DNA of 64,000 nt, from the IMG/VR virus record IMGVR_UViG_3300005529_000006, positions 1-64,000 of that record, one strand, 5' to 3'. Source of the DNA: a virus. A model generated the notes under the pieces. That model was given only the letters and a program-made list of their open reading frames with translations. It was not told the DNA's origin and did no database searches. Within the stretch, counting starts at the first letter, position 1, and each line of letters starts with the position of its first letter. Below, one piece after another: positions 6,416-59,021 of this stretch. Made by a program: the position numbers and the translations under genes.

Positions 6416-6424
6416 AGTTCCCTC

Positions 6425-6658
6425 CTATGCGACTCCTACCCCTTGATAGGCCATGCTCCCCACTGCCACCTGTACCACCTCCTGCCCACAAGTCATACAC
6501 CTGACTGTAAGCACTCCAGTAGAGCTATACGCGACATCCAGCCCCGTACCGGGATGACACTTACTCGTAAGCAGCATCTCTTCATGCTTTCCACCACAGT
6601 GCGTACAGCCTTTGTCCAGCGACCCGTCCAAATCTTCACGAAACTTTATTTTTGCCAT
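6425..6658 (-). CDS. zinc-ribbon protein (CTHCGG...CMTCGQ)
   Basis: ORF with two CxxC pairs. Confidence 0.45.
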   Translation of the reverse strand: MAKIKFREDLDGSLDKGCTHCGGKHEEMLLTSKCHPGTGLDVAYSSTGVLTVRCMTCGQEVVQVAVGSMAYQGVGVA

Positions 6659-6721
6659 GTCTTATCCTTTCCCTGAGGAATCCAATCAAAATTGCTAGGC
6701 CCAAAATAATGAGCCCAATCT

Positions 6722-8149
6722 TCAAAGCACTCCTATGCCAAGCTTGGCGCACAACATATCAAGATCATGGCAATGTATGAACTGCTTGTTCTTCAGTGCT
6801 CCCTTGAAGAGTTCATCCGTCGCCTTCCGGAAAGAGTCATCTCCTGTCCATCCAGTATCCGTTACAAAGTACCTGGGGGCAGGCTGTTTCAATAACCACT
6901 GAAGCGCAGGGAAATCAATATAGTTCTCCCCATACCTGAAGGGTAGTTTTCCTCCGCCTTGATGCTTATAACGTCTGCCTTTCTCGGAGTAGATAGCCAA
7001 GGTGCCGTTGTACTGGATACAAGGGTCCCCCTTGCTATCCTTAACAGCCTTCCCATTCTGCCCCGAGTAATACGCCACCGTACCCAAGGGGATCTTCTCC
7101 GCCACAGCCTGGAGCTGTCCATCAGGAATACTCATACTCCCCGACGCATCAATCAAAACCGTCCCGCCATTCAGATGTTTCGCTCTTCGCAAAAACATCC
7201 TTGGCGGAGCAGGACTAATCGCAAGCGCCAACTTCTTCGCCCGAATCTTCATGCCTGCCATGACCAGCTTCTCGCTTGGCCCCTTGAAGGTGGCTTCACT
7301 GGTGGCCTTCTGCGCCATGTGCTCGATCTTCATGCGCGGGTAACCATCGGGCTTGGACATGATGTCTTTAATCGAACCGCCCGACAGATAGTCCGTGGCG
7401 TCCCCCAGAGAAAGGAAGTTGCTTTTCTCCTCTTCCCTTTTCTTGCCCCCTCCACGTCCCCATCCCCGCGTGGTCATCTTCATCAGCTCTCTGGGGCTTT
7501 GCATCTTGGCCCCAGTGAAGAACTTCTCGATGATTCTCCGAGCCGCCGCCTTGTTGTCTTTCTTCAGGTAGTCCAAAGCAGAATCAATTGCATCCCGCGC
7601 CAATTGCCCGTTCCCAAATAGCGGCATATCTGGGTCATAGAAGTGCCCTAAATCTGTACACTTCTGAAACAACTTATCCGCCAATTCTGGATGAGGAACA
7701 TCCCCTCCCTGCATCATGGCCCTGGCTCTCAAGGCCACAAGAAATGCAGCATCCTTCATGCCCAAAGGCATATACCTGATCGACCGCAAATCCAAGTAAG
7801 CCATGGTCAGCTCGTCCCGCCTGACCGAGCCCCTGGTCTGTGCGCACTTCACATGCAAATACGCATCTTCCACAGCCTGACTCAGGAAACTCTGATCGAC
7901 AGAAGCCTCCCCTGAATAAAGCGCATGAAGAGATTCATGAAGTCGAATTGTTCTGCCCACTGCATCTTCAAAGGTGGGGAGGATGGCCTCTTTCTTTTCC
8001 GGACTATATCCCCCCATAACATTGTTCAGCGGGTCGGCCTGTTTGACCTTGACCTTCGCCCCATCCTCCTTAAGCCTGTCCTTGAAGAGTTCCAACACCT
8101 CATCGACGTTGGACTTCAGGTACTCCGCACCGAAAACCTCTTCACTCAT
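6722..8149 (-). CDS. VWA-domain protein (CobT-like partner of the MoxR ATPase)
   Basis: MIDAS motif VLIDASGSMS in the C-terminal half; 475 aa; coupled by an ATGA overlap to the upstream Cys-rich ORF. Confidence 0.65.
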   Translation of the reverse strand: MSEEVFGAEYLKSNVDEVLELFKDRLKEDGAKVKVKQADPLNNVMGGYSPEKKEAILPTFEDAVGRTIRLHESLHALYSGEASVDQSFLSQAVEDAYLHVKCAQTRGSVRRDELTMAYLDLRSIRYMPLGMKDAAFLVALRARAMMQGGDVPHPELADKLFQKCTDLGHFYDPDMPLFGNGQLARDAIDSALDYLKKDNKAAARRIIEKFFTGAKMQSPRELMKMTTRGWGRGGGKKREEEKSNFLSLGDATDYLSGGSIKDIMSKPDGYPRMKIEHMAQKATSEATFKGPSEKLVMAGMKIRAKKLALAISPAPPRMFLRRAKHLNGGTVLIDASGSMSIPDGQLQAVAEKIPLGTVAYYSGQNGKAVKDSKGDPCIQYNGTLAIYSEKGRRYKHQGGGKLPFRYGENYIDFPALQWLLKQPAPRYFVTDTGWTGDDSFRKATDELFKGALKNKQFIHCHDLDMLCAKLGIGVL

Positions 8150-8727
8150 GACTTCCTCCGTTTGCAGTTGCCATCTTCGTCGAAATGATCTGTTAGATCG
8201 GCGTTAAGCCACCGGTCGCCTTTGCGCCAAAAGGCTCCGGAGCAGTAGCCGCAGTTAGTAGGCCAATAGCCCTTCTTCACCAGCGCCCCCGCAGGAATAT
8301 AACAATCGGGTTCGCCTTCGCTTGGTGCCCAATTATGGTGTTCCCCCCAAGACTTCCCGCAGTTCGCACAAGGCTCCTTCGAGTTCCTGTCATCAAACGT
8401 TGCCCCACAGACCATACATCCCATCCCATCACATACACATGGTTTGTAAATGACTATGGGCTCGAAAGAACAGCCGACCCCTCCTTTTGTTGTATGCCTA
8501 CCTGCATGTTTCCCACACTTCTTACAACGCGCACTGTATGGATAACCGTAGCTGCCAACAGTGAGAGGATCGCCGGAGGGATACTCTTTCCTGTATCCCT
8601 CCGTATCCAGCACAACCACTTCCCCCTCACTTGTTGTCCAGGTCTCAGCTACGTCCCCTAAAAACCGGGGTGAGTCAAATACCCCTTGCCTCCAGGACAC
8701 TTCATGGCCTCTGAACTCCCCGCCCAA
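8146..8727 (-). CDS. Cys-rich protein with repeated CxxCG..W.EHH zinc-binding units
   Basis: CKKCGKHAGRH, CANCGKSWGEHHNW, CGYCSGAFWRKG; sits between the AAA and VWA genes. Confidence 0.45.
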   Translation of the reverse strand: MGGEFRGHEVSWRQGVFDSPRFLGDVAETWTTSEGEVVVLDTEGYRKEYPSGDPLTVGSYGYPYSARCKKCGKHAGRHTTKGGVGCSFEPIVIYKPCVCDGMGCMVCGATFDDRNSKEPCANCGKSWGEHHNWAPSEGEPDCYIPAGALVKKGYWPTNCGYCSGAFWRKGDRWLNADLTDHFDEDGNCKRRKS

Positions 8728-9707
8728 CTATGGTCGTTGGCAGTGAGGCCACAGTTTCTACATTTCACACTTGAGTAATCATTGGGCAGATACCCTTGCT
8801 TCGAGCCCCCATCCTTTCCATGTGGCCCATTCCTATGCGGACAAGTCTGCCCAGGGCCAAACTCCGGATGAGCAAGGTGCGCTCCCTGTTGTTCCCCACA
8901 GTAATAACAGGGGCTGCTCGTATCAGGAATCTTTCCCTTATATCTCGCAGCCGTGGTCAGTACCGACAGAATCTCTTTCCCCGTCGTTCCAAACACACTC
9001 TCCGCGATCTGTGTCTCGCACAGAATCTCCGCCTGCTTGATCTTGGCGAAAGCCCGCATCCGGCGCAGCGTGGGTTTAGTAGAAAACTGCCACGGAGCAG
9101 GAGCCACGTTCTTGAAATGGTTCTTAACCGCCGCAGCTTGCGCCTCATCCAACCCGGTCAGCGCATCGGGATGAGGGTCTTTGGCAATCAAAACCGCCTC
9201 AAACCGATCAATGATGGCTTCCGGCAGACTGGCCAAGTTCGCATTAGTAGTGGCAATCACCACATACCCCTGCTTCGCCTTGACCATCTCTCCGGTGGGG
9301 AGCATAATCTGCGGAGCGTCATCCAGGAACGCATACATCAAAGACGCGATCTCACTTGGATGGTGGTCGATCTCGTCAATGAGCAGAGCCTTCCCTTCCC
9401 GGAGGGCTCTCGTTCCTGGGCCATCAACCCAAACGGTTTCCCCTTCCCGGAGCTGATACATCCCCACAATGTCCTCCACTCCCGTGCCTTCCGTCATGGT
9501 CAGACGGTAATCACTGCGAGTGACCTCTACTGCGGTGCGGCTTTTGCCCGTTCCCGGAGGGCCACAAAGCAAAATCCGGTTGCTCCCGCTATCCACCAGT
9601 GCGGGAAGGGCCTGGTACCATGCCACACTACGTGCAAACTTCGTCGCTTCGCTCATCTTCAGTAGCTCCTTCGATCTCTTCTTTTTCGTTCTCAATGACG
9701 TAGCCAT
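8658..9707 (-). CDS. MoxR/CobS-like AAA+ ATPase (AAA_5) with a Cys/His-rich C-terminal tail
   Basis: Walker A LLCGPPGTGKSRTA, Walker B LLIDEIDH, sensor ATTN, IDRF; C-terminal CYYCGEQQGAHLAH...CRNCGLTANDHSW. Confidence 0.7.
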   Translation of the reverse strand: MATSLRTKKKRSKELLKMSEATKFARSVAWYQALPALVDSGSNRILLCGPPGTGKSRTAVEVTRSDYRLTMTEGTGVEDIVGMYQLREGETVWVDGPGTRALREGKALLIDEIDHHPSEIASLMYAFLDDAPQIMLPTGEMVKAKQGYVVIATTNANLASLPEAIIDRFEAVLIAKDPHPDALTGLDEAQAAAVKNHFKNVAPAPWQFSTKPTLRRMRAFAKIKQAEILCETQIAESVFGTTGKEILSVLTTAARYKGKIPDTSSPCYYCGEQQGAHLAHPEFGPGQTCPHRNGPHGKDGGSKQGYLPNDYSSVKCRNCGLTANDHSWAGSSEAMKCPGGKGYLTHPGF

Positions 9708-10473: not shown

Positions 10474-11352
10474 TTATTGTTTTGAATTTACAGGCAAATT
10501 GAATAACAATCCGCCACCGGCACCTGTCATCACACTTGGCACATCTCCATGCCAGCGATCAACAGCTTTGTCCTGGATAGCGAGTCGCCGCCACTCTAAC
10601 AACTGAGGTGTAAGGCTCTCAGTCAGCTTTTTGTTGGCTTGCGCTTCACCATCAGCTTGAGCGATATGCGCTTTGGCCTCACCTTCAGCCTGCGCCACTC
10701 GCTTCTGCGCTTCCGCTTGAGCAGTCAGCACTTCATTCTGAACTTTCAGTGCAATTTGCTGCGCTTGCATCTTCGCATTGATAGCTTCAATGATCTGCTG
10801 CGGTGGACGAGGAGAACCGATCAAACCAAAACTCTGAATCTGCACTCCCAAATCCTTCGTGCCATCTTGCACACAACCCCGCACATCATCCAACAGCGGC
10901 TGCACATTGCTCATCAACTGATCCACAGTGTATTTCCCACCGTGGCTGGTGAAGCAATCCCGCGTGACATTGTGCAGATACCCAAAGGTAAACTGCGTAA
11001 TATCGTCGGTGCGGAACTTCACATAAAACGCTGGCACCTTGGTGGAATCGAGCTGATACGAAAGGTTCACGTCAACATTCACCGTCATGCCCCCGTTCGT
11101 ATTGAACGTGAAGGACTCATCGCCCTCCGAGTTCTTCGCCGTCCACACGTACGTTTGCACATACGTGGGATATTCCATGATGCTCGTTGTGAACGGGTTG
11201 TAGAACACCCAACCCGTCGTGGTGGTGTAATCCTGTACCCCACGATGCGTTCCGGCCATGTCTACCACAATTCCCACATGGCTCGGGTTAATCCGCGTGC
11301 ACCCCACTCCTGCCATTAACAGGAGCACTACCCCCAACAGACTCTTTCTCAT
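10474..11352 (-). CDS. SPFH/band-7 (stomatin/HflC-like) lipoprotein
   Basis: Signal peptide MRKSLLGVVLLLMAGVGC (lipobox-like); band-7 core; C-terminal coiled coil AQAEAQKRVAQAEGEAKAHIAQADGEAQA. Confidence 0.65.
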   Translation of the reverse strand: MRKSLLGVVLLLMAGVGCTRINPSHVGIVVDMAGTHRGVQDYTTTTGWVFYNPFTTSIMEYPTYVQTYVWTAKNSEGDESFTFNTNGGMTVNVDVNLSYQLDSTKVPAFYVKFRTDDITQFTFGYLHNVTRDCFTSHGGKYTVDQLMSNVQPLLDDVRGCVQDGTKDLGVQIQSFGLIGSPRPPQQIIEAINAKMQAQQIALKVQNEVLTAQAEAQKRVAQAEGEAKAHIAQADGEAQANKKLTESLTPQLLEWRRLAIQDKAVDRWHGDVPSVMTGAGGGLLFNLPVNSKQ

Positions 11353-11536
11353 GCTTCTTCTCCTTTTTCCAGACCCGACGCAAGATAGTGGGGACAACAA
11401 TACCCCACGAAACTAAAAACAACCCCGCTCCCAAGAACAACTGAGTGTCACTGGGAGCGTCCATCATAGAGAGAGCGATGGTTGTCACTCTCATCATGAG
11501 CAAGAACAACAAAGCCGTAAGTATCGCTTTCTTCAT
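11288..11536 (-). CDS. small membrane protein (NfeD-like partner candidate)
   Basis: Two TM helices; immediately upstream of the SPFH gene, with overlap. Confidence 0.4.
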   Translation of the reverse strand: MKKAILTALLFLLMMRVTTIALSMMDAPSDTQLFLGAGLFLVSWGIVVPTILRRVWKKEKKHEKESVGGSAPVNGRSGVHAD

Positions 11537-11920
11537 TCAGTTAGTCCATTTCCCCATAGGGACGGTTTCGACCTTAGGCTCTCCTACCTCTACCAACGCC
11601 CCATGAATGTGGAAATTGCAAGCCTGGGCTACCGCTGCCTTGAAAGAGCACGCTGCCCCATAGGGCAACATCCCGGAATCCACCAACATGGCAAACGCAT
11701 CTTCCATGGCATCACCCGCAGCAATTCGGTCATCGTTCAAGATGCCATCCCGCTTTAGTGATTGCACATGTTTCAGAGCTTCCTTGTCGTTCATCCGGCG
11801 CTCTTGCCAAGCCCGCAGAGTTGCTCCTTTAGGCTTCGGTGTCTTTTCCGAGCGTTTTCCAAACCGCCCGAGTAGTGTCGTCCACTTTCCCATATCTGTG
11901 CTCCTGTATGCACTCGCCAA
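11537..11920 (-). CDS. hypothetical protein (127 aa)
   Basis: ORF contiguous with the next gene. Confidence 0.4.
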   Translation of the reverse strand: MASAYRSTDMGKWTTLLGRFGKRSEKTPKPKGATLRAWQERRMNDKEALKHVQSLKRDGILNDDRIAAGDAMEDAFAMLVDSGMLPYGAACSFKAAVAQACNFHIHGALVEVGEPKVETVPMGKWTN

Positions 11921-49051: not shown

Positions 49052-50292
49052 TGGGTATCTACGATTCACTACTGGGTAGTTCCTTTTTAATGGGACCCAA
49101 CCAAGCGATGAGCATGAGTCGCCAACTTGGTGGACTGCGTGCTATGCAGATGATGCAGAGAGAGTCGCGCTATGCCGATCCTCGCCCCATGAGAAGCATG
49201 GGCGGGAGAACGCAAGCGTTCAATCCCTTTGGTGCGGTGGCTCCCGACCAGCCTGACTATTCTCAGTTCACCTTTAACCAGGACGCCCACAACATGGCGG
49301 GCAAGATGCTGGAGCCTTATGGCCTGCATCCCCTAGAGCCAAGCCAGGTAAATCCTTTTGCCCTCTTCCCTAATCGTGGGTTCTTCGGACGCCACCCAGG
49401 GATTACCAACGCTCTAGAAGGCGGGATCTTCGGTGCAGCCTCTGCACAAGGCGCAGACACCTGGGGAGAAGGCATCTCCAATATCGCTCGATCTATGATC
49501 GAAGGCCCGCAGATGCGGCACCAGATGCTGGAGCGCCAGTTTGCTCAACCCTTCGAGGCTGCCGCTGCCATGGAGAAACTCCACGGCCTGGGCCTGGAGA
49601 ACCAACTCCACGAAGCTCAGATCCAAGAGGCTCGGGCGCGGGCGGAGAAACTCGGACAAGATCCCTGGCCGAAGTATGGAGAGCGTTTCAACACGGACGA
49701 TGGCTCGGTGTATGTGGTAGATCAGAACACAGGTATGCCTAAGCAGGTAATGCCTCCGGGTTCCGTCTCTAAGCCTGACAAGGCTCCCACCGGAGTCCTG
49801 GGGATGTACGAGCCCTTCAAAGCGGATTATCTGAGGCGCAATCCCAAAGCCAACGAGGAGCAAATTCAAACCGCTTTCGCCAAGAGTCGCAGAGCCGGGA
49901 GTGCCGGACGCGCAGGCAAGAGTGTGATGGCAGTAGTTAATGGGAAGCTCCAGGAAATTAAACCTGGCGACCCCTGGCCTTCAGGCGCAACCTCCCCAAG
50001 CGTAGCCGAAGGCACCAAGGCAACTTACACCCAATCTCAATGGGACAAAGCCCACCGAGATGTCTTCATGGGCGCGGGAACCAAAGCCCGCTTCTGGCTG
50101 GACAAGAAACTCAAGAGCGGAGAATCTGTTGACTTCTCGAACGAGAAGCAGAAGCAGCAGTGGTTCCAAGAGAACTACGGCGACCGCCCACAGCCATTTC
50201 CTAATCTGCCGCAACCTTTTGGTGGCGTGCAGGTGCTGCCCTCTAGCGTGGTCAACACGCCCAACGACATCCCCGATAATCCTTACGAATAG
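49051..50292 (+). CDS. putative internal virion protein (413 aa)
   Basis: ORF in the internal-protein block. Confidence 0.5.
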   Translation: MGIYDSLLGSSFLMGPNQAMSMSRQLGGLRAMQMMQRESRYADPRPMRSMGGRTQAFNPFGAVAPDQPDYSQFTFNQDAHNMAGKMLEPYGLHPLEPSQVNPFALFPNRGFFGRHPGITNALEGGIFGAASAQGADTWGEGISNIARSMIEGPQMRHQMLERQFAQPFEAAAAMEKLHGLGLENQLHEAQIQEARARAEKLGQDPWPKYGERFNTDDGSVYVVDQNTGMPKQVMPPGSVSKPDKAPTGVLGMYEPFKADYLRRNPKANEEQIQTAFAKSRRAGSAGRAGKSVMAVVNGKLQEIKPGDPWPSGATSPSVAEGTKATYTQSQWDKAHRDVFMGAGTKARFWLDKKLKSGESVDFSNEKQKQQWFQENYGDRPQPFPNLPQPFGGVQVLPSSVVNTPNDIPDNPYE

Positions 50293-53200
50293 TGCCACAG
50301 AATCCTGACATCAGATCGGTCCTCGATCCTCTTCAGGTGGATAAGAGTCTCAAGAAAACCGCTTGGGACTCCTACTACGGAGCGAACAGCCCCGATGAAT
50401 TCCGCCAGAAGTTCGACTCCCTCGCTATCCCAAAGGAAGCTAAAAAGCAACTTTGGGATATGAAGTTTGGAGGGAAACCGAAAGTAAACTTCCCGATCCC
50501 ACAGCCCTTTGAAACTGGGCCACAGCTTCCGGAGAAACCGGAGCAGCCTGGAATTGTCTCCCAGGTCCTAAGTGCGGCCTCGAATATCCCCTTGCTGTCT
50601 GACTTGGGGATACCTTCGAGTCGTGGACCGATGCCTGTCAAGGGTGCAGGTGTAGCCGATGTGACTGGAGCCCGAGGTTATCCCGAGATGTATCAGGGAG
50701 CCAAGGAGTTCTATAACGCGGACCAATACGCAGATAAACGTCGCGCACAATACCAGGGAGCAGCTCGTACCATTGGTGGCGCGATGGAAGCGGCCAAGCC
50801 ACTGATGTATCTCTCCGCAGCGGAAGCCCCCATCGACTTCGCCGCAGGTCTTGCATTGAGTCAAGCAGGAAGTTATGGGGCAGAACATATCTCCCGAAAC
50901 TACTTCAAGGCTTCCCCTGAAGCGCAGCAGCTCTGGGGACAGCTAGGCGGATTCCTGCCCATGGCAGGAGGCATGGCACGGGGATCTATCCGTGGCTACA
51001 AAGAGCTTCGTTCCAATTTGGTTTCGAAACTAGCCGATGACATGTTGAAGCAAGGAGCTACGCCAGAGATGGCACAGCAAGCTGCTGAACATGCGGTGCA
51101 GATGTATGAAGCCACCGGGGACGCGCAACGCATTGGGGCGGAGAACGCTGAACCTCCGAGTGCTACAAAGGTTGCCAAGATCCAAGGAAGGAAGATCGCA
51201 GGTGGAGTGGTTGGAGCCGCACAGCACGCAGCTCCCCTGCCTGAAGAACAAAAGGCAACTCCTATTCCGGAGTTCCAGCAAGCCCCGGTCCCGACGGACA
51301 AGATCGCAACTCCCACGGAGACGTTCGCCCAACCGGAGACACCTAAGACAACTCCCGCCCGTGAGATACTGTCGAGTAGTCCATCTTCTGAGTCTGCCTT
51401 TATGGAGCCTCCGAAAGTGGAGGCTGCTCAGCCGACCGACGTGCGATCTGAGACTCGCCATAACATAACTACCGACGCTGTAACTGGAGAGCAGAAGGTT
51501 GCCCGCAAGGAACTTCCTCCTGCCCAGGAGCGGGCGCAGCAGTACGTCAACGACTATCAGAACTTCGACAAGGAGCAGCAACAGTTAGAGCGCTCCCTCA
51601 AGAACGGCAGACTAAAGAATGCCGACGCCACGCGCCAGCGAGTCGAACTCCTCAAGCAACTCAAGGACAAAGCCTGGAGGAACTATGTCCAGTACGCAGA
51701 CAGGGGAGATGTAGTAGATACCCTGAAGGGCCTGGCCCCTCAGCTCAAGTCTCTTGCCGATCAAAGCTCTCTCCTCCAGAGCATCGGCAAGCATCTCGCC
51801 GACGGCAGCTACACCCTCTACAAAGCAACTGCGGACAAGTCCAACAAGACTTATGTTCCGGATGACCTGATTCAGTCTGCCCTGGGCACAGGCCGCACGA
51901 ACGTAGTGCCTCCCGTCCCTAAGGACTTCGTTGACTCCTTACCCGAAGGCTCCTACAAAGAACAGCTCAAAGCTCTCAATCCTCGCAGCCAGGAAATCCG
52001 TCAAGCCTGGGTATCGAAGTATCTTCTCCAGACCTCCGGAGAAGTCCGCAACCAATACGAGGCGCTTAATGACCGCTTCAACGTCGCACTCAAAGTAAAA
52101 GGCGTGCGACCGGAGGAGTGGCTGCCCCTCACTGCCGAGAGCAAACCCGAACCCAAAGGCCTCCCCGCTTATCGCCCGGAGACTCCTGCCCCCGCTGTCA
52201 ACAAGCCTTCTGCCTCGGCTACCGAGCGCAACTCGATCATCGAGTACTACCAGAAGCAACTGGCTGCCGCTAAGACCGACAAGGATCGGCAGATGTGGCA
52301 GAAGTCAATCGAGAAAGAGCAGAAGAAACTCGGGAAAGTCCCTCCCACAGAGGTCCCCAAGACCGAACCTCCCCTACCTAAAAAGGGGTTCAGCGAACAG
52401 GAGTTGCCTGATGAGATGCGCTCCTTCCTCTCTGCCAATGCCACCATGGGCATGAGAGCGGACGGAGACATAGGCGCACTCCGTCAACTTGCACAGTTCG
52501 GCGACCCCAAAGTTTCTAAACGCGCCCGCCTCTATCTCAAGGCCCTAGGTCATGAAGTCCCCAAAGTTTCCAAAGCCAGCAAAGTGGAAAGTGCCCCATC
52601 AACCTCCGAGGGCACCCCTGCTGAAAAGTCTCTCGAAGCCGCCCAGAGCGCCCAGGCCGCAGGAAAACCCCTTTCGCCTCTCTCGCGGAAAGAAGTTCTA
52701 GATGTAGTTGACAAAGAAATAGCTAAAGCAGGTTTCGACAAAGCCATCGTCAAAGACATTCGCAAGCTGGTGCTCGACACCTACGCCCGTGAAGTGGCGG
52801 CAGGTAACGAGAACGCCCTTGAAGATGTCAAGGGGGTGATCCAATCTTTTGCGAACCAGAAGGGGGTATTCTCCTTCCGTCGCATACCGGGTACGCCGCA
52901 AGGCCCGTCCGTTTTCAGCAGACTCGCTGACACTCTAGACCGAACTCTCAACAAATCTGAACAACGCCAGCTCGCAGAGAACGTTCTCCGTGAAGGCACA
53001 GGCTCGCTCGCCAGGGACAGAGAAAAGGTTTTCCATCGCCTGGAGGATCACCTTGACCGCCACGACGGGGACAATGTAATGGAGTTCCGCGAGTTCATGG
53101 ACGCCGGTGAAGGCAAGCCAGGGGCACGCTTCCTCAATCCCCAAGACCAAGCCATCGCCAACGACCTGCACCAGATGTTCCAAGAACGTTGGGCAAAGCT

Positions 53201-55310
53201 CCAGCAGATGGGCATTGTTGATCCCACCAACGCGGGAATCCAAAACTATCTCAAGCACCTTTGGGAGCGCCCCAACCGCGCCATCGACAGGAACCTCCTG
53301 TTCGGTAAGCGCCCGATTGCAGGCCCAGGAACCTTTCTCAAAGAACGCTTCTACGACTACATGTCAGACGGTCTCGACGCAGGACTAAAGCCTGTCACCT
53401 ACAACCCCATCAAGATGCAGCTCATGGGGATGTTCGAGATCGACCGCTTCATCCGTGCACATGAGATGAAGGACGACCTTATGGCCTCCCGCACCTCGAC
53501 AGGTGCCAGGTTGATGAAGTGGTATAAGCTCGGGGAGTCAAAGCCTCCGGGCTGGCAGAAGATTGATGACCGCCTATTTCAACCGAAGTTCATGACCAAG
53601 AGCGGCCTCACCGAGGCTGGAGCATACTGGGCGCATCCTGACGTAGCCAAGGTCTTCAATAACTACCTCTCCACCGGATTGCAAAACGAAGCCTGGTATC
53701 GAGGGGCCCGACACTTTGGCAACTTCCTCAACCGGATGCAGCTCTCGACTTCTGCCTTCCACGCCACCTTCGAAGTCCTGAACTCAACGATCTCTGAAGT
53801 GGCTCTGGGTTTCCAGAAAGCATTTAACAACCGCGACTTCGGTGCCGCAGCCAAACATATCTTCCGTTCTCCTGTGGCTGCCGCTCATTACTGGAAGCTC
53901 GGCAAGATGATCGAAGCTGAATACCTGACACCTTCGAACAATCTCCAATTGGCTTCTCTCGCTAAGTCCCTGGAGATCGCAGGCGGCAGGATTGGCCTCG
54001 ACCCGCTCTACACTAACAACGCAGTCGAAGCTTTCCATCGTGCAGTGACCGACCGTTCTCTAAAAGCCCTGCCCCGTGCAGTAGATGCATTGGTGGAGAA
54101 ATCTTCTAACTGGCTCATGAAGAACATGGTCCCCCGAATCAAGATTGGGATGTTTGCGGAGATGGCCGACCATCGCCTCAACGAACTCATGAACGCCGGA
54201 GCCTCCCGCGAAACCATCTCGACTGAACTTGGAAAGCTCTGGGACTCTGTGGACAACCGCGCCGGACAGCTTGTCTATGACAACCTCTTCTGGAGCAAAA
54301 CGCGCAAAGACCTGGGCTTCTTAGTTATGCGTTCTCAAGGTTGGAACCTTGGTACGTTACGAGAACTCGGGGGAGGAATGGTCGATCTCGGCAAGATGTT
54401 CGGAGGGAACACCCGCTTGACCGAACGCACAGCCTACATCATGGCGATGACTGCAACCATGGGATCTCTGGGTGCGATCTACCACTACATGGAAACAGGT
54501 CAAGCACCCCGGAAGCCCGCAGACTATTTCTTCCCTGGCAAAGAGGGCCAGAAGAAATCCTTCCCCTCTTATATCCGTGACGTAGGTGCGCTGCTGCACG
54601 CCTTGAGTAGCCCCAACAAGCTTCAGGGTGTAGGCACGATTGCTGCCCACAAACTCAACCCAGAGTGGCAGCTCCTCTACGACCTCTACACTAACCACGA
54701 CTTCTACGACACACAGATCTATGACCCCGGAGATCCGGCTACCCGTCAAGTCTGGGATGTCGCAAAGTACATCGGGAAGCAGGCAACTCCTATCTCTATC
54801 CAATCTGCCATGGAACGGCACCGTACAGGTGAATCGTGGGGTAGCTCGGTGGGTGGCTCCCTCATGGGTATCACTCCCGCGCCCAAGTACATCGGTCAAT
54901 CCCCTGCGGAAGAGATGGCCTTCGAACTTGCCAAGCGCAAGATGGAATCCGGCCCACACTCCAAAGACGAGTTCGCCCGTGAGCAGGCTTTCCAGGAAGT
55001 ACGCCGCACTCTCGCACAGCACGGCAAGCTCGACTTCAACCGTGTTCGCCAGCTTGTAGCCGATGGCAAGGTCACCGCAGAACAGGTAGACCGTATCTAC
55101 GATGAGCAAGGCATGGGTGCCTTGGAGCGCCACGTCGCCAGATTAGACAACCTCAAAGACATGTTCACTATCTGGGATCTGGCCGACCCCAACGAAAAAG
55201 TCCAACTCCGCTCTCGTATTCTGGATGTTTACGATAACGATATCGGTCGCCTGTCTCAGGACCAGCGTGAGTACTACACTCGCAGAATTCGCAGTGAAGT
55301 GCTACACTAG
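50292..55310 (+). CDS. giant internal virion / ejection-type protein (1672 aa)
   Basis: Last and largest structural gene, Ala/Gln/Lys-rich; carries an in-frame motif copy (PLPKKGF). Confidence 0.6.
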   Translation: MPQNPDIRSVLDPLQVDKSLKKTAWDSYYGANSPDEFRQKFDSLAIPKEAKKQLWDMKFGGKPKVNFPIPQPFETGPQLPEKPEQPGIVSQVLSAASNIPLLSDLGIPSSRGPMPVKGAGVADVTGARGYPEMYQGAKEFYNADQYADKRRAQYQGAARTIGGAMEAAKPLMYLSAAEAPIDFAAGLALSQAGSYGAEHISRNYFKASPEAQQLWGQLGGFLPMAGGMARGSIRGYKELRSNLVSKLADDMLKQGATPEMAQQAAEHAVQMYEATGDAQRIGAENAEPPSATKVAKIQGRKIAGGVVGAAQHAAPLPEEQKATPIPEFQQAPVPTDKIATPTETFAQPETPKTTPAREILSSSPSSESAFMEPPKVEAAQPTDVRSETRHNITTDAVTGEQKVARKELPPAQERAQQYVNDYQNFDKEQQQLERSLKNGRLKNADATRQRVELLKQLKDKAWRNYVQYADRGDVVDTLKGLAPQLKSLADQSSLLQSIGKHLADGSYTLYKATADKSNKTYVPDDLIQSALGTGRTNVVPPVPKDFVDSLPEGSYKEQLKALNPRSQEIRQAWVSKYLLQTSGEVRNQYEALNDRFNVALKVKGVRPEEWLPLTAESKPEPKGLPAYRPETPAPAVNKPSASATERNSIIEYYQKQLAAAKTDKDRQMWQKSIEKEQKKLGKVPPTEVPKTEPPLPKKGFSEQELPDEMRSFLSANATMGMRADGDIGALRQLAQFGDPKVSKRARLYLKALGHEVPKVSKASKVESAPSTSEGTPAEKSLEAAQSAQAAGKPLSPLSRKEVLDVVDKEIAKAGFDKAIVKDIRKLVLDTYAREVAAGNENALEDVKGVIQSFANQKGVFSFRRIPGTPQGPSVFSRLADTLDRTLNKSEQRQLAENVLREGTGSLARDREKVFHRLEDHLDRHDGDNVMEFREFMDAGEGKPGARFLNPQDQAIANDLHQMFQERWAKLQQMGIVDPTNAGIQNYLKHLWERPNRAIDRNLLFGKRPIAGPGTFLKERFYDYMSDGLDAGLKPVTYNPIKMQLMGMFEIDRFIRAHEMKDDLMASRTSTGARLMKWYKLGESKPPGWQKIDDRLFQPKFMTKSGLTEAGAYWAHPDVAKVFNNYLSTGLQNEAWYRGARHFGNFLNRMQLSTSAFHATFEVLNSTISEVALGFQKAFNNRDFGAAAKHIFRSPVAAAHYWKLGKMIEAEYLTPSNNLQLASLAKSLEIAGGRIGLDPLYTNNAVEAFHRAVTDRSLKALPRAVDALVEKSSNWLMKNMVPRIKIGMFAEMADHRLNELMNAGASRETISTELGKLWDSVDNRAGQLVYDNLFWSKTRKDLGFLVMRSQGWNLGTLRELGGGMVDLGKMFGGNTRLTERTAYIMAMTATMGSLGAIYHYMETGQAPRKPADYFFPGKEGQKKSFPSYIRDVGALLHALSSPNKLQGVGTIAAHKLNPEWQLLYDLYTNHDFYDTQIYDPGDPATRQVWDVAKYIGKQATPISIQSAMERHRTGESWGSSVGGSLMGITPAPKYIGQSPAEEMAFELAKRKMESGPHSKDEFAREQAFQEVRRTLAQHGKLDFNRVRQLVADGKVTAEQVDRIYDEQGMGALERHVARLDNLKDMFTIWDLADPNEKVQLRSRILDVYDNDIGRLSQDQREYYTRRIRSEVLH
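52373..52391 (-). repeat. 19-bp motif copy G inside the 1672-aa gene (CCTACCTAAAAAGGGGTTC, in frame as PLPKKGF)
   Basis: Exact copy. Confidence 0.8.
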
Positions 55311-55358
55311 AAATAAGATCTGGTGTTTTCAGATCTAATAAGACGAATAACGCAAAGA

Positions 55359-55381
55359 GGGGTTCTCCGGAACCCCTTTTT
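55359..55381 (+). terminator. rho-independent terminator (GGGGTTC-tccg-GAACCCC + TTTTT)
   Basis: Its downstream arm and T-tract are the first 12 nt of motif copy H. Confidence 0.65.
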
Positions 55382-55388
55382 AGGTAGG
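55370..55388 (+). repeat. 19-bp motif copy H (GAACCCCTTTTTAGGTAGG; ATG of integrase 1 nt after)
   Basis: Exact copy. Confidence 0.8.
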
Positions 55389-55389
55389 T

Positions 55390-56259
55390 ATGAATCTTCG
55401 ATTTTGGGCAGGCAAATATGAAGCCTCCCTCGCCACGACAGTACGCAGAGACACCCGCGAACGCTACGGCATAGCCCTCAACCACATCCTGGAATACCTT
55501 GGCCCCCTCCATCCCAAGGATGTCTTCAAGATCGACGCCAAGAACTACATGGCCCACCGGCTCTCTAAGGGCCTAGCTCCCAACACGGTTCGCCAGGAGA
55601 TCTTGGTAGGCTGTGCTTTCTACAACTGGCTCATCGAAAACGAAGTCGTAGAGTACGGCCACAATCCGTTCTCCCGTGTCAAGAAGCCTCGCGCCCCTGA
55701 ACCACTACGTCGGGCACTCTCTAAAGACACTCTCGCCAAACTGTGGGCTGCTGCGGAGAAGAAAAGTGATCTGGTGATGTTGTCTGTGGCATTGCTTACT
55801 CCCCTTAACGCCAAGACAATTGCCATGCTGCAAAAGAGCAACTTCGATTTCGAGCGCAAGCAACTGGTGTGCGAGAGGAGCAAGACAGGTGTGGCCCTGA
55901 TTCTTCCTGTGGCCGATGAACTCCTGGAGCTGGTAGCTTCTCTCCCCGAGGGTCCCCTCTTCCCCAAGGTAATCCTTGACCGCAGGCCCGGCTCTGTGCT
56001 CTCCCGCCGCTTTGCGGTCCTAGCAAAAAAAGCCCTGGGGTTTAACCCAGGGCTACATGCGCTGCGCCATACCTTTGCAACCGACGCACTTCAAAGCGGA
56101 GTTGACATCCGGACCGTTCAAGCACTACTCGGCCATAAGTCAATAATGACGACCGCTCGTTATCTTGCGCCAGCGGACACTGAATCGGTCAGAGGGTTCT
56201 TGGAGACTAGGTTGCTGAAGCTTCAATCACCTTTGTCTCCGCCTCCTGAATCCCCGTAG
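55390..56259 (+). CDS. tyrosine recombinase, Xer-like (289 aa)
   Basis: C-terminal catalytic HALRHTFATDAL...LLGHKSIMTTARYLA (R-H-R-Y). Confidence 0.75.
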   Translation: MNLRFWAGKYEASLATTVRRDTRERYGIALNHILEYLGPLHPKDVFKIDAKNYMAHRLSKGLAPNTVRQEILVGCAFYNWLIENEVVEYGHNPFSRVKKPRAPEPLRRALSKDTLAKLWAAAEKKSDLVMLSVALLTPLNAKTIAMLQKSNFDFERKQLVCERSKTGVALILPVADELLELVASLPEGPLFPKVILDRRPGSVLSRRFAVLAKKALGFNPGLHALRHTFATDALQSGVDIRTVQALLGHKSIMTTARYLAPADTESVRGFLETRLLKLQSPLSPPPESP

Positions 56260-56339
56260 CTTCTTCGATCTGTTCTGCACAAAACCTTAACGACTGTATT
56301 TGTGCAACCAGTTCCATTCGCTTCAGGGGATCTTGTTCT

Positions 56340-56618
56340 CTAGCCAATACCGCATCCAGCTCGTTCGCCCGACGACGCCAATCGTTCCGTAGTCTTAGAG
56401 CGTCGAAAAAGCTTAGAGTCATACGTACTGATAGTAGCACGCTTAGGAGGCCCTAACCAAGCGCCATAATATGCCAACAGATCAAGGGCACCTGATAGGG
56501 TCGCACAGCCAGCACCGAAGCGTAACCATCCCCTAGACGCTACGGTGAATATCGCTGCTCCTAGAGTGAACAGCACACACGACAACAGGGAACATAGGAG
56601 AAGCTCTCTTCCCCTCAT
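56340..56618 (-). CDS. small membrane protein (start at internal Met)
   Basis: LLLCSLLSCVLFTLGAAIFTVA; lies between the two recombinase genes. Confidence 0.35.
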   Translation of the reverse strand: MRGRELLLCSLLSCVLFTLGAAIFTVASRGWLRFGAGCATLSGALDLLAYYGAWLGPPKRATISTYDSKLFRRSKTTERLASSGERAGCGIG

Positions 56619-56734
56619 TTCGGTCCTTTTGTTACCTTTGTTTTGTTTAAGCAGTCCGGGAGGGACTGTACAGTAGATACTGTACTTATTGCGCAGAAGC
56701 AAGTAAAATTATTGTACGTTACGAATTCAGAACA

Positions 56735-56755
56735 AGCCCCGAAAGGGGCTTTTTA
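56735..56755 (+). terminator. rho-independent terminator (AGCCCC-gaaa-GGGGCT + TTTTT)
   Basis: Read directly. Confidence 0.6.
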
Positions 56756-56758
56756 TTT

Positions 56759-56798
56759 GGGCACAACTGGGCACAAAACCTGGACTATTTTGTGCCCT
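56759..56798. promoter_or_regulatory. operator-like site: GGGCACAA direct pair, then a 10-10-10 palindrome GGGCACAAAA-N10-TTTTGTGCCC
   Basis: Read directly; same core as the 5095-5350 cluster. Confidence 0.55.
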
Positions 56799-56889
56799 TT
56801 TTCTTTGTGGCAGAACGCTAACCCACATGGAATCAACAGGGCTTATGTTATATATTTGGGTACCGCGCCCTGCCACAGGGACATTCAAA

Positions 56890-58086
56890 CTATACACCTG
56901 CAACAACTTCTGCCTCAACCGTGGGCACAAGTGGGCACAAAATCGTGCCCATCTGATCCGCTACTTCCCGGTCTTTCTCCCGAATAGCGTGCGCATAAAC
57001 CCGAAGCGTGAGGCTTGGATCGGCGTGGCCGAGCCTGGTTGCCGCCGTTCGGATATCGACTCCTCGGGAAACAAGGAGAGTTGCGTTGGCGTGCCGGAAG
57101 GCATGAAGGCCCCCTGGCTCAATCCCGAGTCGTTCGAGGAGGGGTTGGAGCTTTTGGAATACGATGTCATGGCCATCAAGAGGGGTGCCGTTGCGGGTGC
57201 TAAACACGAATCGCAAAGGGTCTCCCCCTCCAGCACAATGACGTTCAAGGGCATCAGCCAGAGCTTTGGATACCGCGAGCGTTCGTAGTGCGCTCGTCGA
57301 TTTCGGGGTCTGTACTCGACCCTTCCATACACTCTGCCGCACTTGCACTGTATGGTGTCGGGTGTCAACATCACACACCCTGAGTCCAGTGATTTCACCT
57401 GCACGTAGTCCTGTTTCAGCAGCCAGCCAATAGATAGTCCTATATGGTTCTTCGGCTGCGGCGATTATTCTTTGGATCTCCTCCAGGGAGAAGCACCGTC
57501 TCTTGGGTGGCTTCTTCCTTGGGAGCACAATGCCATCACAGGCGTTGTGAGTTACAGTTCCCCAAGATTTGGCGGTCTTCCATATGAGTCTGAAGGTGCC
57601 GATGATATTCCTGACGGTCTTGGGATTTAAGGTGAGGCCCGCGATGAATCTTTGAAGATGCACGGGTGCAATATCCCCCATGTCCATCTCCCCAAAATAC
57701 GGAATAAGATACCTGTTTATGTGGTTCTTCTCCATGCTCTGAGTGGACAACTTGTGGGAGGGCATCACGGTGTCTCGCCAGTTGGTGGCAAATTCCCCAA
57801 AAGACACCTTGACCCTCGGACGATAATCCAGGGCATTTACTTCACCCAGGAGTCGGTCGAGGGCCCGTTGAGCTAAACGTTTAGTAGGGAGTTCCTGTAG
57901 AGTCCCCAATACCTTCGACTTGTGAACTCTCACAATCGCAGAAGTTGAGGCGCTTGCCACAGCTCCAGCAGAAGTCGTAGGTTCCCCATACGAAGGCTTG
58001 ACATCCTCCCTCCACCTGGCGACCCACACCTTCTTCTTGTTTCCCCTGAGAAACAACCTTCCTTTCTGATACCTTCTCCGAGCCAT
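56890..58086 (-). CDS. int: tyrosine integrase (phage type, about 398 aa from the MARRRYQKG start)
   Basis: N-terminal arm/SAM-like region, catalytic C-terminus ...LHAFRHANATLL...GHADPSLTLRVYAH. ORF as listed begins at 58143. Confidence 0.75.
   Translation of the reverse strand: MARRRYQKGRLFLRGNKKKVWVARWREDVKPSYGEPTTSAGAVASASTSAIVRVHKSKVLGTLQELPTKRLAQRALDRLLGEVNALDYRPRVKVSFGEFATNWRDTVMPSHKLSTQSMEKNHINRYLIPYFGEMDMGDIAPVHLQRFIAGLTLNPKTVRNIIGTFRLIWKTAKSWGTVTHNACDGIVLPRKKPPKRRCFSLEEIQRIIAAAEEPYRTIYWLAAETGLRAGEITGLRVCDVDTRHHTVQVRQSVWKGRVQTPKSTSALRTLAVSKALADALERHCAGGGDPLRFVFSTRNGTPLDGHDIVFQKLQPLLERLGIEPGGLHAFRHANATLLVSRGVDIRTAATRLGHADPSLTLRVYAHAIREKDREVADQMGTILCPLVPTVEAEVVAGV
56921..56950. repeat. 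GTGGGCACAA x2 plus an inverted GTGCCC half-site, overlapping the last codons of the integrase
   Basis: Read directly; candidate arm-type/attP-associated sites. Confidence 0.5.
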
Positions 58087-58468
58087 TTTCTCCTGGCCCG
58101 TTGATTCCGGTACCATCATACAAGACACCTGTTGCTCTGTCATCTAGCTCCGGATGTGATACGCTATACTCCAATAGACTAAGGAGGCCCCAACACGCAT
58201 GAGAAAGATGTGGCAATCCAGACTCTTCATCCAGTTCTTCTCCGGACCACCACTTCCAGAGGTGCCGCATGACTGCCGCGAATATGCGACTCCATTTCAA
58301 ACCCTTGCGCCAGTTATTGTCCTCATACTTCCCTGCGCCGAACGTGTACACTCGGCCTAGTTCCCACAACGGATAGGCTGGTATGAGGTCCAGCCTATTC
58401 TTCCCTCCATCGTCCTTCGCGCCTTCCTTAAGCTTACTTGTTTGCTGCAATTTCTCTTGCGAACTCAT
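57881..58468 (-). CDS. dATP/dGTP diphosphohydrolase-domain protein
   Basis: DDGGKNRLDLIP...FGAGKYEDNNWRKGLKWSRIFAAVMRHLWKWWSGEELDEESGLPHLSHA, the hallmark of the phage dGTP-diphosphohydrolase N-domain (recollection). Start trimmed to Met-42; about 200 nt overlap with the integrase start is unresolved. Confidence 0.6.
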   Translation of the reverse strand: MSSQEKLQQTSKLKEGAKDDGGKNRLDLIPAYPLWELGRVYTFGAGKYEDNNWRKGLKWSRIFAAVMRHLWKWWSGEELDEESGLPHLSHACWGLLSLLEYSVSHPELDDRATGVLYDGTGINGPGENGSEKVSERKVVSQGKQEEGVGRQVEGGCQAFVWGTYDFCWSCGKRLNFCDCESSQVEGIGDSTGTPY

Positions 58469-59021
58469 CAAAACTCTTAACCCTTTTAATGTCCTTGTGG
58501 GTGTAGCCCTGATTGTGTGAATGATTCCGAAGAAAGACTCGGCAAGCAGGGTTGTATCTCTTGACTGCCTCGCAATTGTGGGGACGGTCATCGAGAAAGT
58601 AATCCAGTTCCAACGCCAAACCTAAAGGCCCCTTGTTGGGCGTGACCAAGACAGTCGGATTAGGAAGCCCGAACTTTTCCTGTAACCACTTGAAGGTTTG
58701 CAGCTCTACAGGTTCCCCTTTGGTGGGGAACCGGGATGTAATGAAGTAGGTTCGATTGAGCTGAATGAACCACTTGTCCAGCAGAGTCACACCACCCTCT
58801 TTGTTGAGGGTCGTGTGGAAGTTATTGATATTCCGGATGCGCCTCCAGACAGCAGCGATCTCTGCCTCGCTGAGTCCGTAGTTGCTCCAGTTCCAATCGA
58901 CAGGCATGGTGCCTTCGACCGGGAGGCCAAAGAGATCCCGCGCCTCTCTGGTAAATGTGGAGATGAAATCTGCTAGGACATCATCCACATCCACCCCGAC
59001 GCGGGGGCGAGTGTCAGTCAT
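58434..59021 (-). CDS. 5'(3')-deoxyribonucleotidase (NT5C, HAD superfamily)
   Basis: N-terminal VGVDVDDVLADF HAD motif I; 195 aa. Confidence 0.7.
   Translation of the reverse strand: MTDTRPRVGVDVDDVLADFISTFTREARDLFGLPVEGTMPVDWNWSNYGLSEAEIAAVWRRIRNINNFHTTLNKEGGVTLLDKWFIQLNRTYFITSRFPTKGEPVELQTFKWLQEKFGLPNPTVLVTPNKGPLGLALELDYFLDDRPHNCEAVKRYNPACRVFLRNHSHNQGYTHKDIKRVKSFDEFAREIAANK

Follow-up and report, generated by a model that had tools for sequence, protein, structure and literature searches.

A probable lambda-type integration module with a tRNA-Cys 5′-end core in a temperate phage of Terriglobia

The DNA analyzed here, a single stretch of 64,000 nucleotides (the window), belongs to an uncultivated soil phage of about 67 kb for which no close relatives were found among cultured phages or in IMG/VR. 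Two tyrosine recombinase genes converge near the end of the window: a gene for a Xer-like protein of 289 aa on the plus strand (55390-56259) and an integrase gene, int, on the minus strand, separated by a gap of 630 bp. A giant gene for a virion protein of 1672 aa lies directly upstream of the Xer-like gene, and the gap holds repeats, a terminator candidate and small minus-strand reading frames. Nearly all of the elements described in an earlier sequence-only reading (the convergent recombinases of 289 and 398 aa, two terminators, repeats) were found where that reading had placed them. No tRNA genes occur in the 64-kb window or in the related phage loci, and positions 55300-57100 contain no Rfam families.

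The open reading frame of int spans 56890-58143 on the minus strand and matches PF00589 and PF14659; a start conserved in the family (MARRRYQKG) sets the gene at 56890-58086 and the protein, Int, at 398 aa. Alignment to XerA/XerC-like structures reveals a complete catalytic set (Arg228, Lys262, His328, Arg331, His354 and Tyr364), invariant or nearly so in 40 homologues. The AlphaFold model of Int (mean pLDDT 84.6) has a strand-strand-strand-helix arrangement at residues 10-83, formed by strands 10-14, 20-31 and 52-62 and a helix at 69-83, with pLDDT of 85-95 in this block outside a disordered loop at 35-48. In Foldseek the best match of the model is Tn1549 Int (E=8e-13), and Int aligns over 389-406 columns to full-length lambda Int. 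Judged by this predicted fold, the N-terminal domain would be of the arm-binding type and Int a lambda-like three-domain protein. Sequence and profile searches with the N-terminal domain returned no match to Pfam, PDB sequences or the lambda profile.

The proposal that attP overlaps the int 3′ end is supported by the region between int and the small genes, where the GGGCACAA repeats behave as arm-type sites would. GGGCACAA occurs eight times in the 64 kb (2.7 expected), and five of these copies are packed into 182 bp, at 56759, 56769, 56790 (minus strand), 56923 and 56933. The putative P′ arm (56759..56797) carries the copies at 56759 and 56769 on the plus strand and the one at 56790-56797 on the minus strand. 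It contains the palindrome that had been described before; the palindrome is present, but as a 10-9-10 and not a 10-10-10 arrangement (arms 56769-56778 and 56788-56797, 9 nt between them). The putative P arm (56921..56950), inside the last 20 codons of int, has GTGGGCACAA at 56921 and 56931 on the plus strand and a degenerate inverted copy, GGGCACGA, at 56950-56943. There are three GGGCAC(A/G)A sites on each side, and the two clusters are direct repeats of each other (46 nt, 72% identity, 164 bp apart). Midway between them on the minus strand is the core, GGCGCGGTACCCAA (56856..56869), which occurs once in the window (0.02 expected) and completes an attP of about 200 bp. No core-type site dyad is obvious at the core, and identity with attB is just 14 bp.

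Fourteen nucleotides past the core on the minus strand is CCCTGTTGATTC (56830..56841). The motif CCYGTTGRWTC is kept at this position in the related phages L001, L003 and L004 and at attL of a prophage remnant, L005, despite their differing cores, and may be a site for an accessory protein or for Int. A 13-nt inverted repeat (56806-56818 and 56865-56877) encloses the core and this motif and folds at -37 kcal/mol on the int strand (z = -3.1); three related phages have equivalent stems with altered sequence.

Two small genes lie on the minus strand between attP and the Xer-like gene. One reading frame (71 aa, 56207..56422) overlaps the 3′ end of the Xer-like gene in antisense and has no family match; it is recognizably conserved in L001 and L005, and L003 and L004 have a small frame alike in size and position. 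The other (92 aa, 56340..56618) is hydrophobic and of membrane type, is conserved in L001 and L005 and likewise has no family match. No Xis-like family was recognized, and neither frame matches Pfam or PHROG. Upstream of both genes, a perfect palindrome, GTACAGT-agat-ACTGTAC (56668..56685), is a candidate operator.

Both terminators proposed earlier are present as plus-strand candidates that fit a GC-rich hairpin followed by a T-run. The one at 56734-56755 (stem AAGCCCC-gaaa-GGGGCTT, then TTTATTT) is predicted to halt transcription of the Xer-like gene ahead of attP and int. The other, at 55359-55381 (GGGGTTC-tccg-GAACCCC and T5), ends the gene of the 1672-aa virion protein. A 20-nt motif, tGAACCCCTTTTTAGGTAGG, is found nine times across the phage in both orientations, and one copy (55369-55388) includes the 3′ arm and T-run of this hairpin. 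The hairpin partner exists at this copy only, and with eight of the nine copies lacking a hairpin the structure was not accepted as a typical member of a terminator family. The AGGTAGG end of the same copy may be the ribosome-binding site of the Xer-like gene, which starts with the ATG at 55390.

A sigma-70-like match, TTGAGG-18-TATAGT (56889..56918, minus strand), runs across the int stop codon, some 20 nt ahead of the core. It might conceivably drive expression of a rebuilt tRNA-Cys after integration, in the lysogen; it is a 9/12 match of which about two would be expected by chance in the region. The promoter scanner found none matching ahead of the rebuilt tRNA in L001, L004 and L005. By eye, TTGACA-18-TATAAC can be seen in L001.

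The sequence-only reading had suggested comparing this region with host tRNA genes, and the comparison was successful. The core at 56856-56869 is identical to the first 14 nt of tRNA-Cys(GCA) of Terriglobia (Acidobacteriota), and the same 14-mer forms both junctions of a related prophage remnant. That a tRNA 5′ end and not the usual 3′ end supplies the core was absent from the earlier expectations. The 20-mer GGCGCGGTACCCAAGTGGTA matches at least 120 genomes, nearly all of them Terriglobia, and tRNA-Gly(GCC) lies 8-203 bp upstream of tRNA-Cys in 83 of 114 GGCGCGGTACCCAAGTGGTA loci (median 72 bp).

The remnant is a deleted prophage of a related phage in GCA_037025685.1 (L005/L006), bounded by copies of GGCGCGGTACCCAA 6273 bp apart. 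Its Int is 53% identical to that of the window, with a nearly identical N-terminus, and it retains the C-terminal half of the giant virion protein (54% and 49% identical) and the Xer-like gene (61% identical). The arm sites TGTGCCCA and TGTGCTCA, with the same arm motif as in the window phage, lie inside its two ends. An intact tRNA-Cys, oriented like int, follows 20 nt after the int stop codon, the displaced 14-mer sits at the far end of the element, and tRNA-Gly and tRNA-Cys are 7.2 kb apart. The window core also reads 5′ to 3′ on the int strand, the orientation of a 5′ fragment with the rebuilt tRNA downstream of the element.

Core identity with the host attB and duplication at both junctions are thus features of this relative and not of the window phage itself. 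No integrated copy or junction of the exact window phage was found, and a scan for the core plus the P′ motif gave zero matches in GTDB genomes and JGI metagenomes. Among the GGCGCGGTACCCAAGTGGTA loci from species-representative genomes none has a related int upstream of tRNA-Cys, so use of the site is documented by one relative, seen in two assemblies; the weak integrase matches directly beside those loci are on the tRNA 3′ side. Since nothing in other species matches the host flank of the L005 attL at the nucleotide level, the empty site can be demonstrated just through the tRNA-Gly/tRNA-Cys spacing.

The attP architecture is repeated in L001, L003 and L004, where each phage has an arm motif and a tRNA-derived core of its own. 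Two repeats lie in the int 3′ end of each, the same phage-specific repeat recurs about 165-185 bp downstream, and a tRNA fragment lies between; phage-specific equivalents of the arm sites are present in these three and in L005. The core of L001 and L004 is the 5′ end of tRNA-Val(CAC), with 95 of 122 metagenome matches at tRNA-Val starts, and that of L003 is a tRNA 3′ end with the T arm and CCA. One integrase clade on one attP scaffold, with cores from a tRNA-Cys 5′ end, a tRNA-Val 5′ end and a tRNA 3′ end, informs the question of how integrases are retargeted.

Sequence identity, architecture, co-variation among relatives and one integrated relative were all observed for this locus. It very likely serves a temperate Terriglobia (Acidobacteriota) phage of about 67 kb as its integration module for lysogeny, with a lambda-type Int and an attP whose core is the 5′ end of tRNA-Cys. 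In our model Int would be a heterobivalent tyrosine integrase of the lambda type. Its N-terminal domain would bind the GGGCACAA arm sites, three in the P arm at the int 3′ end and three in the P′ arm, and its core-binding and catalytic domains would exchange strands inside the 14-bp core GGCGCGGTACCCAA, common to the phage and the host tRNA-Cys(GCA) 5′ end (acceptor strand and start of the D arm). Which protein would sit on which site, and exactly where the crossover would fall, we infer. The prophage would land between tRNA-Gly(GCC) and tRNA-Cys, two genes that normally share one orientation and are about 70 bp apart. The 14-nt phage copy would restore an intact tRNA-Cys beside int at attR, and the displaced host 14-mer would remain at attL beside the P′ arm and the small genes. 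The predicted attL is the tRNA-Gly spacer followed by GGCGCGGTACCCAA and ATATATAACATAAGCCCTGTTG, and the predicted attR is GTCCCTGTGGCAG, GGCGCGGTACCCAA and GTGGTAAGGGAG. The two terminators would keep late-operon and Xer-like transcription out of the module.

The Xer-like protein is a two-domain tyrosine-recombinase paralogue (PF00589, E=7e-20) with a weak match to a SAM-like N-terminal domain and no arm-binding domain. Its best PDB matches are 5c6k, 4a8e and 5vfz (P2 Int, XerA and Brujita Int; E about 1e-13). Lys165, His223, Arg226, His249 and Tyr258 are invariant in the alignment. Arg I is replaced by Asn140 (TPLN, not TGLR), and the Glu/Asp three residues on is Thr. The Arg I column holds Asn in the window, Asp in L005 and Thr in L001; it holds Arg in 12 of 15 aligned relatives (L003, L129 and 10 others), which read (T/A)G(L/M)R at this site. 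In Cre, Arg I can be replaced by His alone, and weakly by Lys, and substitutions of the Asn, Asp or Thr type abolish activity (PMC2943603). The idea of two active recombinases, which the sequence-only reading had itself made dependent on the R-H-R-Y residues, fails on the first Arg of that set. With Arg I missing, dimer resolution or inversion by ordinary catalysis is unlikely. On its sequence the protein is probably not an ordinary active recombinase, and because the reading frame is still intact (across 45-61% identity) a non-canonical or non-catalytic role seems most likely.

Could the Xer-like protein nonetheless act, either together with Int in a heteromeric complex at attP, like XerC/XerD or Tn554 TnpA/TnpB, or as an active resolvase or invertase at a separate site? 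We regard this as improbable. The conserved synteny of the gene, its retention in a 6.3-kb prophage remnant, the invariant Lys, His, Arg II, His and Tyr and the intact frame at 45-61% identity all point toward activity, but both Arg I and the neighboring acidic residue are lost, the replacements vary (N, D, T) and such changes kill Cre (PMC2943603). Cooperation is further contradicted by L129, which has the Xer-like gene and no int gene in 6 kb on either side, and by L004, which has Int and a Xer-like gene reduced to a 112-aa remnant; these two phages indicate that the proteins are independent of each other. As for a separate site, no conserved candidate for a Xer-type cognate site (two inverted 11-13-bp arms with a 6-8-bp spacer) was found near the gene, which is flanked by coding sequence except at the attP region. 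An inversion might use two perfect 19-bp inverted copies of a repeat, at 52373 and 55370, between which lie the final part of the giant gene and the beginning of the Xer-like gene. This candidate was rejected: the repeat is one of nine scattered copies in both orientations and is missing from relatives that keep the Xer-like gene. It is also quite improbable that the GGGCACAA clusters are instead operators of a regulator of int and the small genes, with the palindrome as a dimer operator, or sites for the Xer-like protein. Their 10-9-10 palindrome and inverted half-site do look operator-like, and the 11-mer GCACAAAACCT recurs at 56277, just past the Xer-like stop codon. GGGCACA also turns up at 5108-5355, within four composite repeats of a regulatory, non-coding stretch, so another protein could recognize it. 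Yet the arm motif varies between related phages and agrees, within each, between P in int and P′ in non-coding DNA; it flanks a tRNA-derived core in every case; L004 retains the repeats with only a Xer-like remnant; the L005 remnant retains arm sites just inside both att junctions; and the related phages L127 and L128 have no such motif in the region equivalent to 5108-5355. The 5108-5355 repeats were also considered as attB mimics, as they contain CCCAAGTGGTAAG, found in the tRNA-Cys D arm. Relatives retain just AAGTGG.CGATTCT and GTCTCTCTC, so that resemblance may be due to chance, and the candidate was dropped.

The earlier suggestion that the Xer-like gene marks a second mobile element captured by the phage likewise did not survive comparison with relatives, and we consider it extremely improbable. 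Two recombinase genes of different subfamilies do face each other, and L129 lacks the Int/attP/small-gene block, from which it follows that at some time one block or the other was acquired or lost as a whole. Against capture, the Xer-like gene comes directly after that of the giant virion protein in at least five related phages (the window phage, L001, L003, L129 and the L005 remnant), among them L129 with no int gene in 6 kb on either side, and a second set of att-like direct repeats around it is lacking. In our model the gene belongs to the older, syntenic components of the phage group and takes no part in attP recombination; if anything was acquired, it was the Int/attP block, in an ancestor. 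A further possibility, tentative and on balance unlikely, is that the Arg-I-less protein is a domesticated recombinase that aids Int and attP non-catalytically, as an architectural or directionality factor or a regulator, and that insertion rewires the tRNA-Gly/tRNA-Cys pair. Were this so, host transcription from tRNA-Gly would run on into the small genes of the prophage, while tRNA-Cys would be expressed from a phage promoter located in the int 3′ end.

To return to the lambda-type module, it is well built and largely ordinary; elements that use a tRNA 5′ end, though rare, have been described before, and this phage adds a clean example to the rare 5′-tDNA class. The match predicts a host (Terriglobia) for an uncultivated soil phage of 67 kb and supplies an exact attB. 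To our knowledge, few genetic tools exist for Acidobacteriota, and integration vectors could be developed from an Int/attP pair whose 14-bp tRNA-Cys target is defined. The Xer-like paralogue offers a natural case of a tyrosine recombinase outliving the loss of Arg I. Like P2 Int, Brujita Int, archaeal XerA and XerC/D, it combines a SAM-like N-terminal domain with a catalytic domain and has no arm-binding domain; unlike them, it is missing Arg I and the next acidic residue in the window phage and two relatives.

Int resembles the integrases of Tn916 and Tn1549, which have SAM-like core-binding and catalytic domains and, in the full-length proteins, an N-terminal arm-binding domain. However, those enzymes accept heterologous overlap regions and work on transposon ends, whereas the window phage has a defined 14-bp tRNA-gene identity and a phage context. 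With lambda the locus shares the full catalytic set and a modeled three-domain Int that aligns to full-length lambda Int, together with an attP of about 200 bp in which a short core, common to phage and host, is flanked on each side by repeated arm sites. It differs in sequence (about 15% identity in Int), in a P arm inside the int coding sequence, in a core that is a tRNA 5′ end and not intergenic, and in that no Xis homologue was recognized.

Finally, integration at tRNA 5′ ends is known from genomic islands: Islander holds 159 islands with a 5′ tDNA fragment versus 3760 with a 3′ fragment (PMC4383910), and Klebsiella arg2 islands use the acceptor 5′ half, D stem and D loop (bioRxiv 10.1101/2020.11.02.365908). 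Like such islands and prophages, the window phage carries the 5′ acceptor strand and the start of the D arm and would insert upstream of the tRNA body. Its integrase clade and host phylum are different, and its identity with the target is only 14 bp. The target is the second gene of a tRNA-Gly/tRNA-Cys pair, a kind of site that the Klebsiella study found to be avoided (bioRxiv 10.1101/2020.11.02.365908), and integration would therefore part tRNA-Cys from the upstream tRNA-Gly.

The sequence-only reading placed the phage attachment site over the 3′ end of the integrase gene; this is supported and can be refined to a 14-bp tRNA-Cys core, which also bounds a related prophage remnant found in two assemblies (L005 and L006). 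The window sits on a 67,277-bp metagenomic contig (ENA ERZ27279688). A 1672-aa virion-protein gene, the giant gene (50292-55310, plus strand), closes the structural block and is followed by a hairpin with a T-run (55359-55381) and a gene for a 289-aa Xer-like tyrosine recombinase (55390-56259, plus strand). Convergent with it is the gene for the 398-aa integrase, Int (56890-58086, minus strand), the first of a replication block that contains a MazZ-like gene, NT5C, RNase H, DUF3987 and DNA polymerase A. The space between the recombinase genes is taken up by two small ORFs on the minus strand, conserved yet without a family match, one plus-strand terminator and roughly 130 bp of DNA that is non-coding. 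The terminator (56734-56755) has an orientation suited to halting the Xer-like transcript ahead of attP, and a perfect palindrome (56668-56685) upstream of the two small ORFs may be an operator. The earlier description of these elements was accurate overall, except that the spacer of the reported palindrome is 9 nt, not 10, and that the first hairpin is built on a copy of a repeated 20-nt motif.

GGGCACAA occurs eight times in the window against 2.7 expected, and five copies fall inside 182 bp: three in non-coding DNA (56759-56797, the P′ arm) and two inside the int 3′ end (56921-56940, the P arm). With a degenerate inverted copy at 56950-56943, each cluster comes to three sites. The two clusters are direct repeats of one another, 164 bp apart. 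No similar phage was found among cultured phages or in IMG/VR. Protein searches showed the Int family to be abundant in Acidobacteriota assemblies and yielded three contigs of related phages (61-67 kb) whose genes are arranged in the same order: L003, L004 and L001, the last from the sample that gave the window. All three carry two 10-11-bp direct repeats in the last int codons, and each one's own int-end repeat reappears about 165-185 bp downstream in non-coding DNA. The motif varies among phages (TTGTGCCCA in the window, TTG(A/T)TCCCAAG in L003, CTGATGCCAAAT and GAGGCCAA in L004) and agrees across both sides inside each phage; this is the pattern expected of arm-type sites co-evolving with their integrase. 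With one of the clusters in non-coding DNA, this agreement cannot be due to coding constraint.

The closest homologue of the Xer-like protein (61% identity) is encoded on a 2.4-Mb contig of GCA_037025685.1 (L005). A 6.3-kb element there encodes an Int 53% identical to that of the window, with a nearly identical N-terminus. The Xer-like gene and both small ORFs are present in it as well, and of the giant protein it keeps the C-terminal half (54% and 49% identity). Given this content, the element is what deletion has left of a prophage from a related phage. Downstream of its int, 20 nt beyond the stop codon, is an intact tRNA-Cys(GCA) gene in the same orientation. The first 14 nt of that gene, GGCGCGGTACCCAA, recur 6273 bp away at the opposite end of the element, a duplication also present in the independent assembly L006, and TGTGCCCA and TGTGCTCA sites lie immediately inside both ends of the L005 element. 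In the window the 14-mer occurs once, on the int strand (56869-56856; chance expectation 0.02 matches), halfway between the two arm clusters. When the window attP, the L005 attL and attR and two unoccupied attB sequences were aligned, identity was limited to the 14-bp core; to its left the window is unlike both L005 junctions and the two attB sequences, and to its right CCYGTTGATTC is common to the window and the L005 attL. We infer where the crossover falls, which sites are of the core type and every assignment of a protein to a DNA site.

A 13-nt inverted repeat surrounds the core (folding z = -3.1). Its equivalents in relatives have altered sequence, with double changes in 7 of 18 consensus pairs (four sequences; consensus energy -5 kcal/mol), which is only suggestive. 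The remnant Int of L005 (5637-7103, minus strand) also carries a C-terminal HNH_3 endonuclease extension of ~100 aa, absent from the phage integrases, and a separate HNH_3 ORF lies immediately inside attL (about 11400-11760).

A 20-mer made of the core plus the six tRNA bases that follow it matched at least 120 species-representative genomes, nearly all Terriglobia, with Terriglobus roseus, Granulicella, Candidatus Angelobacter and Acidiferrales among them. In 83 of 114 loci, tRNA-Cys is preceded by a co-oriented tRNA-Gly(GCC) gene (spacing 8-203 bp, median 72). In L005 the two are 7.2 kb apart, and the phage therefore inserts between both tRNA genes. On insertion, the phage copy would replace the first 14 nt of tRNA-Cys, and the displaced host copy would stay at attL. 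A sigma-70-like match across the int stop codon, immediately upstream of the core, could be the promoter of the rebuilt tRNA-Cys; it was not reproduced by a promoter scanner in the relatives. No junction of the exact window phage was found; scans of GTDB genomes and JGI metagenomes with the core and P′ motif gave zero matches, and no related int lay upstream of tRNA-Cys among the Terriglobia loci from species-representative genomes matched by the 20-mer.

The relatives have other cores in the same place. Between the clusters of L003 (about 9163-9200) is a tRNA 3′ end with T arm, acceptor strand and CCA, from a tRNA that we take to be His-like; a tRNA 3′ end in the attP core is the classical arrangement. 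In L001 (about 11053-11070) and L004 (about 8440-8460) the aligned core, GGGCGCTTAACTCAG(Y)GGTA, is the tRNA-Val(CAC) 5′ end, and 95 of its 122 matches, on metagenome contigs, begin a tRNA-Val gene. One Int clade thus combines the same attP scaffold with the 5′ ends of two different tRNAs and, in one case, with a tRNA 3′ end, which is a switch between 3′ and 5′ tDNA targeting inside a single integrase clade.

The tRNA-Cys gene may bear other traces of integration. In Candidatus Angelobacter sp. (DATFQZ010000059.1, locus L016, 1309-1449) its first 16 nt, GGCGCGGTACCCAAGT, are repeated 125 bp upstream of the gene, with GC-rich, repeat-like filler between both copies and tRNA-Gly 203 bp away, the greatest spacing among the loci (8-203 bp, median 72 bp). 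An element using the same 5′ site may have left this duplication as a scar. At six further Terriglobia loci (L008, L018, L112, L114, L123 and L126), unrelated tyrosine-recombinase genes (22-39% identity, partial alignments) are convergent with the tRNA-Cys 3′ end, so other elements apparently use this gene too, at its conventional 3′ side.

Int has the catalytic residues Arg228, Lys262, His328, Arg331, His354 and Tyr364; its first 90 residues were not recognized by sequence methods. An AlphaFold model built on 40 homologues (mean pLDDT 84.6) has three strands and one helix in residues 10-83, where an inserted loop at 35-48 is disordered. Foldseek aligned 389-406 columns of the model with full-length lambda Int, and its best match was Tn1549 Int. 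The predicted fold fits a heterobivalent enzyme whose N-terminal domain would read the arm sites.

The second recombinase had been suggested to be either a further active enzyme or part of a captured element. Capture is contradicted by gene order: in L001, L003, L129 and the L005 remnant, as in the window, the Xer-like gene comes after the giant gene. L129 is a 69.6-kb phage contig (JGI 3300072492) in which the Int gene is absent within the 6 kb fetched either side. There, at 590-7177, the giant protein is followed by an Xer-like recombinase with intact Arg I, and the 12.8 kb fetched contain neither a second integrase nor an obvious non-coding att region; the group may originally have had the Xer-like protein as its sole recombinase. 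Nor are two active recombinases supported, as the Xer-like protein of the window lacks Arg I. This residue lies in a canonical TGLR-type box in 12 of 15 aligned relatives; the box reads TPLN in the window, TPLD in L005 and TPLT in L001, and in these three the acidic residue three positions further on is gone as well. Lys165, His223, Arg226, His249 and Tyr258 are invariant in the alignment. In Cre, Arg I is replaceable by His only, and weakly by Lys (PMC2943603). At 45-61% identity all three Arg-less proteins are still full-length, and this speaks for continued selection; L004 retains only a 112-aa remnant of the gene. Loss of ordinary recombination with some function kept is the likeliest reading.

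Other repeats and genes of the phage deserve mention. The 20-nt motif tGAACCCCTTTTTAGGTAGG, with AGGTAGG-N-ATG at one end and AAAGGGGTTCATG at the other, has nine near-identical copies in both orientations (3471, 19478, 43259, 55371 and 61716, plus; 4539, 19854, 29581 and 52390, minus). Four are antisense to local genes, one lies within the coding sequence of the 1672-aa gene, and only that at 55371 has a hairpin partner; the motif is absent from L001, L003, L004 and two further large contigs of related phages (L127 and L128). Non-coding DNA at 5108-5355 holds four composite repeats, (G/A)GGCACA-N6-CCCA(A/G)GTGGT, two direct and two inverted, around an AT-rich stretch. Their first half equals the att arm motif and their second the tRNA-Cys D-arm bases right after the core. 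This likeness may be chance, because in the equivalent region related phages keep only the AAGTGG.CGATTCT and GTCTCTCTC inverted repeats; alternatively, Int could bind here to regulate, or the stretch could be an origin. An ECF-type sigma-factor-like protein (5551-6078, minus strand; Sigma70_r4 E=8e-8) has counterparts at 39-44% identity in L127, L128 and two short contigs. Directly upstream of int are genes for a MazZ-like dATP/dGTP diphosphohydrolase N-terminal domain (57881-58591, minus strand; PF18909 E=5e-33) and an NT5C-type 5′-nucleotidase (58434-59021, minus strand). No PurZ-like gene was found among the ORFs tested. L127 and L128 have COOH-NH2 ligase and GATase genes, a hint that phages of this group may modify their DNA bases.

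The module works like lambda Int and attP, and its modelled integrase is structurally like those of Tn916 and Tn1549. The target sublocation is mildly unusual. A tRNA 5′ end is an uncommon yet documented target: in Islander, 159 islands carry a 5′ fragment and 3760 a 3′ fragment (PMC4383910), and the part of the gene used by Klebsiella islands at arg2 comprises the acceptor 5′ half, D stem and D loop (bioRxiv 10.1101/2020.11.02.365908). The latter study argued that tRNA genes within polycistronic units are avoided as targets; in contrast, the site used by this phage splits a close tRNA-Gly/tRNA-Cys pair and appears contrary to that tendency.
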